Origin: a virus
Strand: one strand, 5' to 3'
IMG/VR virus record: IMGVR_UViG_3300046804_003617
Coordinates: 1 to 64,000 of that record
DNA length: 64,000 bases
A program made the position numbers and the translations under genes. Below, piece after piece: positions 20,883 through 47,054 of the stretch; within the stretch, counting starts at the first letter, position 1, and each line of letters opens with the position of its first letter. The notes beneath the pieces are model-generated. The model ran no database searches and was not told the origin of the DNA. It was given only the letters and a program-made list of their open reading frames with translations.

Positions 20883-23800
20883 TTATTTATTCTTCAGCTC
20901 CAATAATTGCGATTTGACTTCTTTTAATTCTGCTGATAGTTCTTTTACTGCGGCAATAAGTGCGGCGGTTAATTTACCATATTCCAATCCAGAAATATTA
21001 CCATCTTTGTCTTTGTTGACGATTGTTGGTATCAGTTCATTTACTTCTTCTGCGATCATGCCTATGTCGTTGGTTACATCCTTATTTTTCCAATCGAATG
21101 TGACTGGACGCAACTTTTGTATCATATCCATACCATTTGTCAAATCTTTAATATTTGTCTTGAATCTTCTGGATGATGTGCTGTTAAATGATACTGCGGT
21201 AACTGCTCCGCTTGAATCAAGAACAATGTTTCCTCCACCAACTCCCACTGTTCCGCTGAATGATCCTCCACCGGTACAATCAAATCCTCCGGTTCCTACT
21301 TCCGCTCTTCCGCAAACAATAGTGGAGGCTCCTCCACCAAACTGGAATTTGCTACTTGCATATTTGAATTCTGCACCAGCAAGTGTAAGTACTCCTAGAT
21401 CATTTAGTTTTGTAGAATACCCAGATCCAAGTTGAATAGAGGCGGCGGCACCTCCTCCGGTCAATAGAAGAGGATACGAACCGGTCAATCCAATCGTTGC
21501 TTGGTTTGTTGATGCATCGATACTCAACCCATTTCCTGTTATCTTTGCTGCGGAATTTGTTGCGCTCGATAATCCCCCCGCTCCTATGTTCCATCCGGCA
21601 ATAGTTCCTGAATTTGTCGCGGTCAACGACGTTGCCGTGACAGTTCCCGATATTGTTGCTGATGTGGCGGTCAATGCGCCTCCAGAAGTGACTTGGAATG
21701 TTCCGCTGTTTATATTCAATGTTCCACCAGTTATGGAAACATCCGCACAGCTTATGTTTCCGTTACTATTCAACGTCGTAGAACCGGCAGTCAATGTTGT
21801 GGACCCAATGGTCCATCCACCAATACTGCCGCCGCTATTGGCGTTTAAGGTAGAAACCGTCAGAGTACCATTACTGTTTAGTGTGGTAGAGCCGCCGGTC
21901 AAGCTGCTTGCGCCTATGGTCCATCCACCAATACTACCACCACTGCTTGCGTTTAATGTTGAAACTGTAAGCGTTCCGTTGCTATTTAGAGTCGTGGAAC
22001 CGCCCGTCAACGTACTTGCACCAATAGTCCACCCACCGATACTACCAGCACCGGCGGTAACGGTGCCACTTACAGTAGCAGATGACAAATTCGCCGAAGT
22101 CGCAGTCAATATTCCAGACGGACTTACACTGAAATTCGTAGAACCTGTGATAGAACCATTACTATTTAATGTCAATGCGCCTCCAGTTATGGTACTACTT
22201 CCAATAGTCCATCCACCAATAGTACCGCTTGTTGAAGTTATCTTTCCGGAAATATCCGCCGCACTCGCGGTTACACGGCCATTTGAATCAACTCTAAACG
22301 CCCCGCTTCCTATATTTAATGTACCACCAGTGATAGTACCTCCGCTTATGGTTGGAGAATTTATTGTGAGTGCAGCGTTTATTGTTCCGGCATTGATCTT
22401 GTTTGCATCCAAATTGCGAATATATGCCTGATCCATATACACTCCACTAATGTCAACGAGGAATGGAGTAATAACACTTCCTTCATCTCCCAGAGTATTC
22501 ACAACCTTAAACGTATCCGCTTGTATTATAAATGAAGAGGACGCGACGCTCGATGCTATTTTATATCCAGCAACTCTGTTTCCGGCTGTGACTGCCAGTA
22601 CATACTGGGCTTTCAAACTTACTACAGAACCGGATACCGCCGCTGATGTGGTCTGTGTCGTTGATATACTTGCGCTTAAATTTGATCCACTTATATTAAG
22701 TGCGCTTGTCAAGTTGTTGATGCTAGTTGCGGCTGACGAACTGTTGTTCGTGACTGTGTTGCTGAGACTATTAATGTTTGATTGTAAAGTAGAGCCGCTC
22801 GTATTAAGAGCGCTCGTCAAGTTGTTGATGCTGGTCGCGGCTGAAGCACTATTTGTGGTAAGAGTACTGTTTGTCGTGGTAATGCTCGAAGCCAGAGACG
22901 AACTGTTTGTGGTGATCGAACTACCCAGGCTGTCCATGCGGGTCGCCGCAGACGAACTGTTCGTGGTGACCGTGGTGCTCAGGCTATTGATGTTCCCCTG
23001 CAAGGTCGAACCGCTTGTGTTGAGGGCGCTCGTCAAGTTGTTGATGCTGGTCGCGGCTGAAGCACTATTTGTTGTGATAGTACTGTTTGTCGTGGTGATA
23101 CTTGATGCCAACGACGAGCTATTTGTCGTGATTGAACTACTTAAACTGTCCATTCTAGTAGCCGCAGACGAACTGTTATTTGTGACAGTGTTATTAACAG
23201 TGTTTATATTGGACTGCAACGTTGACCCGCTGGTATTAAGAGCACTGGTCAAGTTATTGATGCTGGTCGCCGCTGAGGCACTATTCGTGGTAACGGTGCT
23301 ATTCGTTGTTGTTATGCTGGAGGCTAGAGAAGAACTGTTTGTTGTAATTGAACTACTCAGACTATCCATACGAGTAGCAGCCGAAGAACTGTTGTTTGTG
23401 ACAGTTGTGCTCAGACTATTGATGTTCGATTGTAATGTCGAACCACTTGTATTCAACGCGCTTGTTAAATTATTTATGCTGGTCGCAGCAGATGCGCTGT
23501 TTGTCGTGAGAGTGCTATTAGTTGTTGTGATACTGGATGCCAACGAAGAACTGTTTGTGGTGATCGAACTGCTCAGAGTATCCATCCGAGTAGCTGCGCT
23601 TGAACTGTTATTCGTGACCGTGGTACTTAGACTATTAATATTCGATTGCAATGTCGAACCACTGGTATTCAACGCACTCGTCAGATTATTGATACTGGTT
23701 GCTGCGGACGAACTGTTCGTCGTCACGGTACTATTTGTCGTTGTGATGCTGGATGCGAGTGAAGCGCTATTTGTAGTAATAGAACTATTCAAGCTGTCCA

Positions 23801-45714: not shown

Positions 45715-47054
45715 CTCGAAATCTTGAATGCTGTTGGAATTGTGAACGTGTTTATCGATCCGCTTTGTTCGGATCTGATTTCGACCTTGTAGTATCTTTC
45801 TGAAGGAAGGCCGCTTGTGTCCAGCATAAAATAATTTCCATATGAATCATAACTTAATCTTGTATAATCGTCGTATGGAAGAATTGTTTCTTCGCTTTCT
45901 GCGTCCTTGATCTGATAAAAGCTGGACGATGGTAGGTAATATGGAGATAGATAATCCGATACCTTATTGGTGAATGTCTTGATAGGATAACGTTTTCTTG
46001 CAGAAACATCCATTCTTACGATTGAACCAAACTTGTATTCCTGTGCCATATTCTTCATATTGACCACGGCGTCTCTTAGTATGATTGCATCAGATCCGCT
46101 GGTATTTATTATGGCATCGTGCCAGCATACATCCAAGTATGGGGAATATATTGTATTGGTTTCTTTGCTGAAGAATTTTAGTGTACCATAATCGACGGAA
46201 CTTGACTCATCACTATGCATTATGATAAATCCTTCATTCACGATTTCTCCATTGATCCAAGCATTTACTATCGGAGTAACGTTCATTCTTACATCGGACG
46301 TTTGATAATTGAAATATTGATAGCAGGCGTATGTTGGGAATGAACCACTCAATGACGCGGACGATGGAACTTCGTAATCACAATATTCGCAATTTGGAAA
46401 TTCGTTGTATTTGCTTATGTTTGCATACTCGGCATAACCAGATCCGGAGGCTTTTGATCCGCTGTTTATCCACCATACACCACCTCCGGTGCAATCTAAT
46501 AGTGAACCTGTATCCCACCATTTTTGAAGCTGATCTGCGGTATTGAATTTCCAGTTTGCTCCATCGGATATAGAATATCCATCATACTTGTATCCAGTGC
46601 CCATCGCCCAAGATTGTGATACTGGATACGCCGCAAGAGAATAACGAACGGGAACTTCCTGAGACTCACATACTTTCAGGTTAAGATAAAATTGTGGATC
46701 TGAAATTTGTCCGCTGGAAATTGACTGCGATATAGTTGTTAGATCAAAGTGCAATAGTGCGCGAGATAAAACTGCACCCATAGTGGTAGGTCCACTTACA
46801 TCCATTATGGCACTGGACACTGGTCTTGGATCGACGGATCCAGAATCAAAAGAAGAAGAAAATGGACCATCCAATAGTTCCAAACTGGAACTTGTATAGT
46901 ATACAACTACAGGAATTGTGGTAGTACTTGAACAACTATATCCAGAAACACGCTTCTCTACTTCAATCAGTTCATCCAACCCCATATTCTTGTACATATA
47001 CGGCGGATAATTTGTTATGAAAGTATCTTTAGTTGGATATAAAAAGTAGTGCAT
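45711..47054 (-). CDS. Putative virion structural protein (beta-sandwich, carbohydrate-binding-like)
   Basis: SRALLHFDL...W..G.G...DV..IV.AW..G...N.GF...FFSKE...P.L pattern; late-type motif upstream. Confidence 0.55.
   Translation of the reverse strand: MHYFLYPTKDTFITNYPPYMYKNMGLDELIEVEKRVSGYSCSSTTTIPVVVYYTSSSLELLDGPFSSSFDSGSVDPRPVSSAIMDVSGPTTMGAVLSRALLHFDLTTISQSISSGQISDPQFYLNLKVCESQEVPVRYSLAAYPVSQSWAMGTGYKYDGYSISDGANWKFNTADQLQKWWDTGSLLDCTGGGVWWINSGSKASGSGYAEYANISKYNEFPNCEYCDYEVPSSASLSGSFPTYACYQYFNYQTSDVRMNVTPIVNAWINGEIVNEGFIIMHSDESSSVDYGTLKFFSKETNTIYSPYLDVCWHDAIINTSGSDAIILRDAVVNMKNMAQEYKFGSIVRMDVSARKRYPIKTFTNKVSDYLSPYYLPSSSFYQIKDAESEETILPYDDYTRLSYDSYGNYFMLDTSGLPSERYYKVEIRSEQSGSINTFTIPTAFKISR

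Follow-up and report, generated by a model that had tools for sequence, protein, structure and literature searches.

The DNA analyzed here, IMG/VR virus record IMGVR_UViG_3300046804_003617, is the first 64 kb (64,000 nucleotides, hereafter the window) of a 76-kb viral contig, and encodes a T4-type portal and large terminase, a gp6/Baseplate_J-like wedge and a gp25-like wedge protein, a series of tail and fiber proteins, and a cluster of glycosyltransferase (GT) genes located between terminase and fiber. The long genes are all on the minus strand, to which coordinates refer unless otherwise stated. The genome of a relative, G001, measures 297 kb and is rated 100% complete, which makes the contig part of a jumbo phage genome. 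Its nearest isolates by terminase similarity are Microcystis phage Mel-JY01 (54%), on which our literature search found no paper, and the Flavobacterium 'immuto' phages (51%). A first-pass annotation of the window had noticed that a tripeptide, Ser or Thr followed by Gly, Ala, Ser or Gln and then by Ser, is dense in nonhomologous tail proteins, and had proposed it as the acceptor sequon of the phage GTs. We examined this motif, chiefly in the form [ST][GA]S, in the window and in related phages.

In brief, we counted [ST][GA]S in each protein and compared the number observed with that expected from shuffles preserving the composition of the protein. The most motif-rich protein (35753 to 38986), a 1077-residue tail protein with an integrin-alpha-type FG-GAP beta-propeller (Pfam FG-GAP_2 PF14312, E 1e-25), has 19 copies against 2.6 expected, or 26 copies if Ser or Gln is permitted at position 2. 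A 1559-residue unannotated protein of the distal baseplate or fiber network (40817 to 45496) has 13 against 2.3, and a 447-residue protein whose gene lies just after that of the gp6-like baseplate wedge (45711 to 47054) has 8 against 1.3. The density claimed for unrelated tail proteins is thus borne out in these three, at 6 to 7 times the level set by composition. Two other tail proteins, of 695 residues (28587 to 30674, 5 against 1.3) and 364 residues (39029 to 40123, 3 against 1.0), show a weak excess alone, but their orthologs elsewhere are clearly enriched. BLAST found no mutual similarity among the motif-rich window proteins and internal repeats are absent, which rules out common ancestry of the enriched proteins. 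The giant fiber (20883 to 28556) is a 2557-residue protein with 24.6% Ser and 17.8% Thr, Mtd_N at its N terminus and an S74 chaperone domain at its C terminus. It does carry, as the annotation had it, S-[S/A]-S-hydrophobic at a fixed register in its 18-residue repeat (36-residue super-repeat), but its 59 copies of [ST][GA]S against 43 expected are just 1.2 to 1.4 times what its very Ser/Thr-rich composition would give. Within the tail module, the gp6/Baseplate_J-like inner baseplate wedge (47111 to 49066) served as a negative control, with 1 copy against 0.9 expected, and 1 against 3.2 when pooled over the clade. The interleaved nonvirion genes for primase and a Mre11-Rad50 fusion (30708 to 34889) encode no copy, nor does RuvC, as expected from the rarity first reported for these three, and in the rest of the 76-kb contig the motif is no more frequent than chance predicts (53 proteins, 20 against 19.3).

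In an unbiased scan of all tripeptides, SGS ranked first (25 observed against 3.5 expected, z 11.8), and TAS and TGS were the sole further well-populated outliers. The order of residues matters: SGS (22 against 3), TGS (10 against 2), TAS (8 against 1.5) and SAS are enriched 3- to 7-fold, while the permutations GSS, SSG, SGT, GST, and GTS are at expectation. The pooled excess was unchanged when shuffling was restricted to blocks of 15 or 30 residues (z about 11 to 12), so that the tripeptide withstands both global and local shuffled controls, and small-residue clustering or low complexity is ruled out by the local shuffles together with the permuted tripeptides. Since Ser codons of both families (TCN and AGY) are used at both Ser positions, the signal is at the protein level, and a DNA-level motif is ruled out; so is a base-composition artifact, since GC content does not separate motif-rich from motif-poor groups. 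At position 2, Ser is weaker than Gly or Ala, and the Gln that the annotation had included finds no support (SQS, 3 against 1.4 expected). The flanks are also biased, with Pro and aromatic residues enriched at position -1 and hydrophobic residues making up 64% of position +1 against a background of 35%; with both flanks included (hydrophobic residues or Pro) the excess reaches 11-fold (18 against 1.6). Pairs of sites spaced 3 to 12 residues apart showed no significant clustering (P 0.13). These findings show that the original observation is real and that the [ST]-[GA]-S motif is both directional and a property of the protein sequence.

We compared the window with four motif-rich complete genomes that have 33 gene families in common, hereafter the core set: G001, G008 (296 kb, 100% complete, syntenic), Mel-JY01, and immuto. 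G006 (79% complete) and G007 (74% complete) are further relatives, and LR756508, a 484-kb uncultured phage with a terminase 42% identical, the same tail-gene order and recognizable orthologs, served as the outgroup. In whole-proteome scans, enrichment at P < 0.01 was found for 13 of 196 open reading frames (ORFs) in G001, 22 of 209 in G008, and 13 of 155 in Mel-JY01, and at P < 0.02 for 10 of 110 in immuto, with the rest of these proteomes giving 71 against 86.8, 77 against 80, 51 against 45.7, and 50 against 47.2 expected, respectively. Pooled over the four genomes, the families of the window proteins 35753 (43 against 6.4), 40817 (51 against 8.7), 45711 (30 against 5.6), and 39029 (20 against 4.5) are enriched, and so are the tail sheath (37 against 11.2), the major capsid protein (MCP; 17 against 5.1), and one further conserved virion protein (14 against 2.8). 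At or below expectation are 1) tail tube, portal, gp6-like wedge and terminase, 2) protease and scaffold-like protein, and 3) replication proteins and the GTs themselves. In G008 alone, the orthologs of 28587, 35753, 40817, and 45711 have 22 against 4.2, 10 against 1.6, 16 against 1.9, and 12 against 2.6.

The location of the sites within proteins is equally restricted. All 17 MCP sites map to the stretch that corresponds to gp23 140-230 of T4. This stretch accounts for 27% of the residues and 41% of the Ser, and we take it to be the external region of the insertion domain. The 37 sheath sites all fall in the variable middle, between the blocks BLAST-aligned to gp18 3-82 and 334-651, presumably corresponding to gp18 domains I and II, the outward-facing ones, as described by Aksyuk et al. 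in 2009. Exposure was judged from homology to T4 gp23 and gp18 regions and from variable insertions, and by this measure the motif is limited to proteins and regions predicted to be surface accessible. The convergent enrichment that had been proposed for outer virion proteins is therefore upheld and narrowed, being confined to outward-facing proteins and, there, to variable, external regions. In lineage-specific fibers and spikes, the motif takes the form of 4- to 6-residue units in which a hydrophobic residue always comes next, e.g., FSGSFSGSF or ITASNISASGYISASNV. Since an ordered motif in excess of composition recurs in unrelated proteins and in settings as different as propeller loops, these short fiber units and the 18-residue periodic fiber, it has the character of a linear signal.

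The same excess is lacking in controls. T4 structural proteins, including gp6-gp12, gp18, gp23, and gp34-gp37, have 14 copies against 24.2 expected. In the outgroup, none of 306 ORFs is enriched at P < 0.01, sheath, MCP and tail orthologs are at expectation, and the orthologs of 40817 and 45711 have 4 against 1.4 and 0 against 0.3, respectively. Since neither control shows an excess, the folds do not require the motif, and a generic property of myovirus tail proteins is ruled out by T4. An intrinsic property of FG-GAP repeats is ruled out as well, bacterial FG-GAP proteins not being enriched. Capsid turns that read [ST]-G-S in the ingroup often read x-G-D at the homologous place in the outgroup.

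The propeller protein at 35753 to 38986 allows a closer look at how sites are placed and inherited. Its AlphaFold2 model (predicted local distance difference test score, pLDDT, 79) has the FG-GAP repeats arranged in an integrin-alpha-type seven-blade fold, with integrin alpha headpieces and propellers as the top folds (E about 1e-11), and most motif sites are in coil. Its family comprises hundreds of homologs; the 103 full-length ones, at 30 to 72% identity, are all enriched (mean 16.7 against 2.9), as are 27 more distant viral homologs. At conserved sites of the family, position 1 is Thr (47.5%) or Ser (43.7%), position 2 is Gly (47%), Ser (34%) or Ala (14%), and position 3 is Ser (89%). At deeper divergence, orthologs retain many copies with few columns in common, and Ser content climbs with copy number: in the 45711 family, ingroup members have 13, 13, 22, 6, and 7 copies of [ST][GAS]S and the outgroup ortholog has 1, for a Ser content of 9.5 to 18% against 7%. 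Copy number has thus been maintained or raised between deep lineages although positions differ. Searches of Pfam, PHROG, and PDB gave no match for 40817 and nothing useful for 28587, 39029, 40135, 45711, 14643, or 15317.

Two observations concern the architecture of these proteins. A 24-residue C-terminal patch is 54% identical between the otherwise unrelated 39029 (residues 325 to 348) and 35753 (residues 1039 to 1061) proteins and may be a shared attachment module; in the outgroup, the C-terminal module is the sole conserved part of the 35753 family (58% identity over 43 residues). Antisense to the fiber gene, long plus-strand ORFs are chained over 21586 to 27909, with a GC-skew jump of +0.23 at 24 to 28 kb. 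These are most likely a by-product of the Ser/Thr-codon repeat, not real genes.

The GT cluster of the window includes an enzyme of the bacterial autotransporter heptosyltransferase (BAHT) type. BAHT enzymes are dodecameric rings that move heptose from ADP-heptose to Ser. The 705-residue protein encoded at 9680 to 11797 combines a GT4 domain with a protein O-heptosyltransferase domain of the TibC/AAH type (Pfam GT1 and GT9), and its residues 350 to 704 are a full-length TibC homolog (4RAP/4RB4, E 7e-74, aligned to 32-386 of 406 residues). The catalytic Asp-110 and the sugar-binding Thr-226, Lys-230, Arg-286, and Trp-305 of TibC (PMC4358343) are all aligned, in SMGD, ATQSTAQAKYW, LEERL, and GSGLSWLSW, and the four-Cys iron site is conserved (C-x-G-C ... 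W-C-P ... F-E-C), while the donor-selectivity position 300 is Gly. Judging from these residues, the window encodes a genuine TibC-type protein O-heptosyltransferase that looks active. The cluster, which is lineage specific, also encodes a GT4-FkbM methyltransferase fusion (12627 to 14612) with no homolog in G008, and beside the fiber gene there is a GT8-family enzyme (19135 to 20307) with no homolog in the G008 or G001 ORF sets. No autotransporter substrate gene was found in the contig, where the nearby candidate substrate is the Ser-rich tail fiber. At least 57 viral contigs, of which many are jumbo-size, carry TibC-like homologs (32 to 68% identity), and in several other viral lineages the TibC-like gene adjoins a collagen-like (G-[S/T]-S)n fiber of 500 to 2400 residues. 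Since TibC-like genes adjoin Ser-rich fibers in those lineages, the window enzyme may, by analogy, act on the giant fiber. Some relatives have a second, shorter TibC-like paralog (G001:C1:179989-180561 and G023:C1:5683-6504), a 302- to 319-residue ORF 46 to 49% identical to the C-terminal part.

The annotation had tied the tripeptide to this heptosyltransferase and the other GT genes of the window, and had named equal enrichment in a relative lacking them as evidence against that tie. This is what we found. G008 has no TibC/GT9 match, by protein or Pfam profile, and no homolog of the GT genes of this contig (it does carry further GT4 and GT2 genes), yet it has 22 enriched ORFs; no TibC-type gene was found in G006 or G007 either, and the orthologs in these three TibC-less relatives are 6- to 9-fold enriched. 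Since they are equally enriched, the TibC-type enzyme is not required for the motif, which depends neither on it nor on the other window GTs.

The broader idea of a sequon for phage GTs fared better once moved away from the GTs of the window, because a cassette of three adjacent genes outside it, GT4a-GT4b-GT2 (118056-121747 in G001), tracks the motif-rich genomes. The cassette belongs to the core set and is present in five of five motif-rich complete or near-complete genomes, including G006, where it is full; in G007 both the cassette and its conserved neighbor are missing, which makes this record uninformative. The contrast is provided by one motif-poor relative and is confounded by phylogeny: 30 of the 33 core genes have homologs in the outgroup, the exceptions being GT4b, GT2, and a PhoH-like gene. 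The outgroup GT4a (LR756508.1 305435-306772) is 32% identical and has one in-frame TGA, the outgroup ORF statistics giving no sign of stop-codon reassignment. For the cassette GT4s, Pfam gives generic GT4 matches only, and no PDB match to GtfA/GtfB was found; the nearest solved relative of GT4a is the chlorovirus GT B736L. Both GT4s retain the E-x7-E signature, so that a GtfB-like noncatalytic partner is unsupported. A host-encoded enzyme is unlikely, since hosts span Cyanobacteria and Bacteroidota.

Since the motif is ordered, independent of context, and absent both from outgroup orthologs and from internal virion proteins of the same phages, we favor a linear signal that is under selection and sits on the exposed particle surface. 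Among such signals we rank an O-glycosylation sequon first because the co-varying enzymes are all GTs and because there are precedents, namely BAHT enzymes with autotransporters and GtfA-GtfB with serine-rich-repeat adhesins. The tag would read (hydrophobic or Pro)-[Ser/Thr]-[Gly/Ala, less often Ser]-Ser-(hydrophobic), in loops and turns at the surface of distal baseplate and fiber proteins in the window and, in complete relatives, of the insertion region of the capsid protein and the variable middle part of the sheath. It would be an O-glycosylation acceptor for soluble phage-encoded GTs working in the cytoplasm before or during assembly, and the outcome would be a particle with a sugar coat. 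The best candidate writers would be the clade-core cassette, with its two GT4s and GT2, and not the window GTs, whose cluster, including the GT4-TibC fusion, would be a lineage-specific addition most plausibly decorating the adjacent giant Ser-rich fiber. We infer from sequence the attachment of the sugar, the acceptor residue, and the writing enzyme alike, and give this combination, a surface sequon written by the core cassette with the TibC cluster as a fiber-directed accessory, an even chance of being right. The wider proposition, that aquatic T4-like and jumbo phages run a sequon-directed O-glycosylation of the virion in which the cassette writes [S/T]-[G/A]-S and TibC fusion add-ons hyperglycosylate the fibers, is put forward tentatively, as somewhat less probable than that.

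Several points weigh against a cassette-written sequon. The phyletic link is suggestive, resting as it does on one close contrast genome; the adjacent GTs missing there probably represent a single loss event, a coincidence of roughly 1 in 15, and the outgroup comparison covered homologs of the core genes. Co-inheritance could explain the association of motif and cassette, GT4b being a clade signature gene found, among 50,697 phage records, only in immuto phages and Mel-JY01. In the 35753 family, Thr makes up 0.9% of position 3 against 3.9% at ordinary conserved-Ser columns, a modest difference, and these control columns weaken a Ser-only position 3 as a strong sign of a Ser-specific enzyme. 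Poorly conserved columns of that family hold the motif no more often than they hold its permutations, and rapid turnover of sites is not seen there; the excess therefore consists mostly of inherited sites. Finally, in the model of the 35753 protein, a strand follows within two residues for only 38% of sites, as compared with 23% of all Ser.

The serious rival, which we think less likely than a sequon, is that no enzyme is involved and that the motif is a structural or physicochemical feature of the surface, a turn or strand-cap (ST-turn type) preferred in this lineage. Charged turn formers would be replaced to give uncharged, hydroxyl-rich loops and fiber shafts, with benefits such as solubility, low nonspecific adsorption, or contact with host polysaccharide. 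Much of the local context fits: sites are mostly in coil, often just ahead of a beta-strand, and are preceded by Pro or aromatic residues and followed by hydrophobic ones; x-G-D stands in outgroup MCP turns in place of the ingroup [ST]-G-S; the excess in the 35753 family comes mainly from positionally conserved columns; fibers employ the motif as a shaft-like repeat of 4 to 6 residues; and the giant fiber is nearly uncharged. Yet bacterial FG-GAP propellers, T4 tail proteins, and outgroup orthologs all fold without it, the same tripeptide sits in very different structural contexts, and it is lacking from the internal virion proteins of these phages. In the 35753 family, [ST][GA]S outnumbers [ST][GA]N/D/T 10-fold and [DN][GA]S 40-fold, ratios that general turn propensities would not predict, and the interchange of Gly, Ala, and Ser at position 2 argues against a positive-phi turn requirement.

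A linear signal could also be read by another factor, since its features leave the reader unspecified: the motif might receive another O-modification (phosphorylation, acylation, phospho-alcohol transfer) or be recognized by an assembly chaperone or a protease. Conserved unannotated genes that flank the tail module, e.g., 14643 to 15284 and 15317 to 18211, are kept in all relatives, but they occur in the motif-poor outgroup too, and no kinase or acyltransferase was found in the trio of core genes co-varying with the motif, the co-varying enzymes being GTs only; we regard this possibility as improbable. Both flanking genes (minus strand) adjoin the terminase gene and have no significant Pfam match, and the Mel-JY01 ortholog of the larger is annotated 'cytidylyltransferase like'. 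More improbable still is that the tripeptide of the globular tail proteins is the acceptor of the TibC-type enzyme and GT cluster of the window. The enzyme itself speaks for it, with a TibC domain that is genuine and looks active by its conserved residues, located near a Ser-rich fiber as elsewhere TibC-like genes are beside collagen-like fibers, and BAHT enzymes modify Ser specifically, in short loops beside beta-strands, TibC and AAH heptosylating Ser and not Thr in loops such as N-S-G-G and T-S-A-A (PMC4358343). With no TibC/GT9 gene in the enriched G008, G006, and G007, however, the clade-wide motif is not explained by such an enzyme.

A few other features of the window are of interest in their own right. 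The Mre11-like phosphoesterase and the Rad50/SbcC-like ATPase are joined in one 1068-residue ORF (30708 to 33914, minus strand) amid tail genes, an arrangement kept in all relatives examined. A DNA methyltransferase gene (57305 to 58090, minus strand; PHROG 67, E 1e-46) lies among structural genes. Two small adjacent proteins (4234 to 4518 and 4523 to 4786, minus strand) are 88% identical over their first 17 residues, which are also 59% identical to the N terminus of the unrelated 56410 to 57231 protein (minus strand); from the alignment, this looks like a shared leader.

To our knowledge, virion glycosylation by phage-encoded enzymes is known in very few systems, and we know of no acceptor rule for any of them. 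If a surface sequon is indeed written by the phages of this abundant aquatic clade, it would stand as the first O-glycosylation sequon to be defined in phage particles, it would make the glycosylated surface predictable directly from sequence, it would explain why soluble GTs are carried by so many large phages, and it would offer a handle on the effects of a sugar coat on adsorption, stability, and host range. The presence of cultured Microcystis and Flavobacterium phages in the clade makes the idea directly testable. Even if purely structural, the motif would be a useful sequence marker of virion surface topology, given its strict restriction to outward-facing regions. Separately, TibC-type protein heptosyltransferases, known from pathogenic Escherichia coli autotransporters, are widespread in phages beside Ser-rich fibers.

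Three known systems invite comparison. In the BAHT pairs TibC/TibA and AAH/AIDA-I, many Ser in short loops of a repetitive beta-rich protein are hyperglycosylated in the cytoplasm by an enzyme whose gene lies beside that of its substrate (PMC4358343). The phage homolog of TibC is full length and retains the catalytic Asp along with the sugar-binding residues and the four Cys of the iron site, but the phage system differs in that a GT4 domain is fused at the N terminus, the neighbor is a Ser-rich tail fiber and not an autotransporter, residue 300 is Gly and not Pro or Ser, and the clade-wide tripeptide persists without the enzyme. The serine-rich-repeat glycoproteins of Gram-positive bacteria are O-glycosylated in the cytoplasm on alternating-Ser repeats, two GT-B proteins (GtfA-GtfB) starting and further GTs extending the glycan (PMC6973325, PMC6291802). 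Fiber units such as SAS-x-x-TAS and S-A-S-Y-A-S, and a cassette of two GT4s and a GT2, recall this arrangement. The cassette falls outside the GtfA-GtfB family, however, in that it lacks a DUF1975 domain and neither PDB nor Pfam shows a similarity to GtfA/GtfB; both of its GT4s have E-x7-E, unlike the noncatalytic GtfB, accessory Sec export is absent in the phage system, and the phage sites are mostly isolated tripeptides in loops of globular proteins rather than long repeats.

The third comparison is with viruses that glycosylate their own particles. Freeman et al. reportedly described in 2023 the O-glycosylation of mycobacteriophage capsid and tail tube (cited in PMC11256854), and chlorovirus capsids are glycosylated by virus-encoded GTs (PMC9614988, PMC7019647). 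The present clade differs from these in its T4-like portal and MCP, in its 160- to 300-kb aquatic phages of cyanobacteria and Bacteroidota, and in its GTs; its candidate sites, as read from sequence, are a defined internal tripeptide in many proteins, and its tail tube is not enriched. What it would share with them is the use of soluble virus-encoded GTs on exposed virion proteins, and the chlorovirus enzyme B736L is the nearest solved relative of its GT4a.

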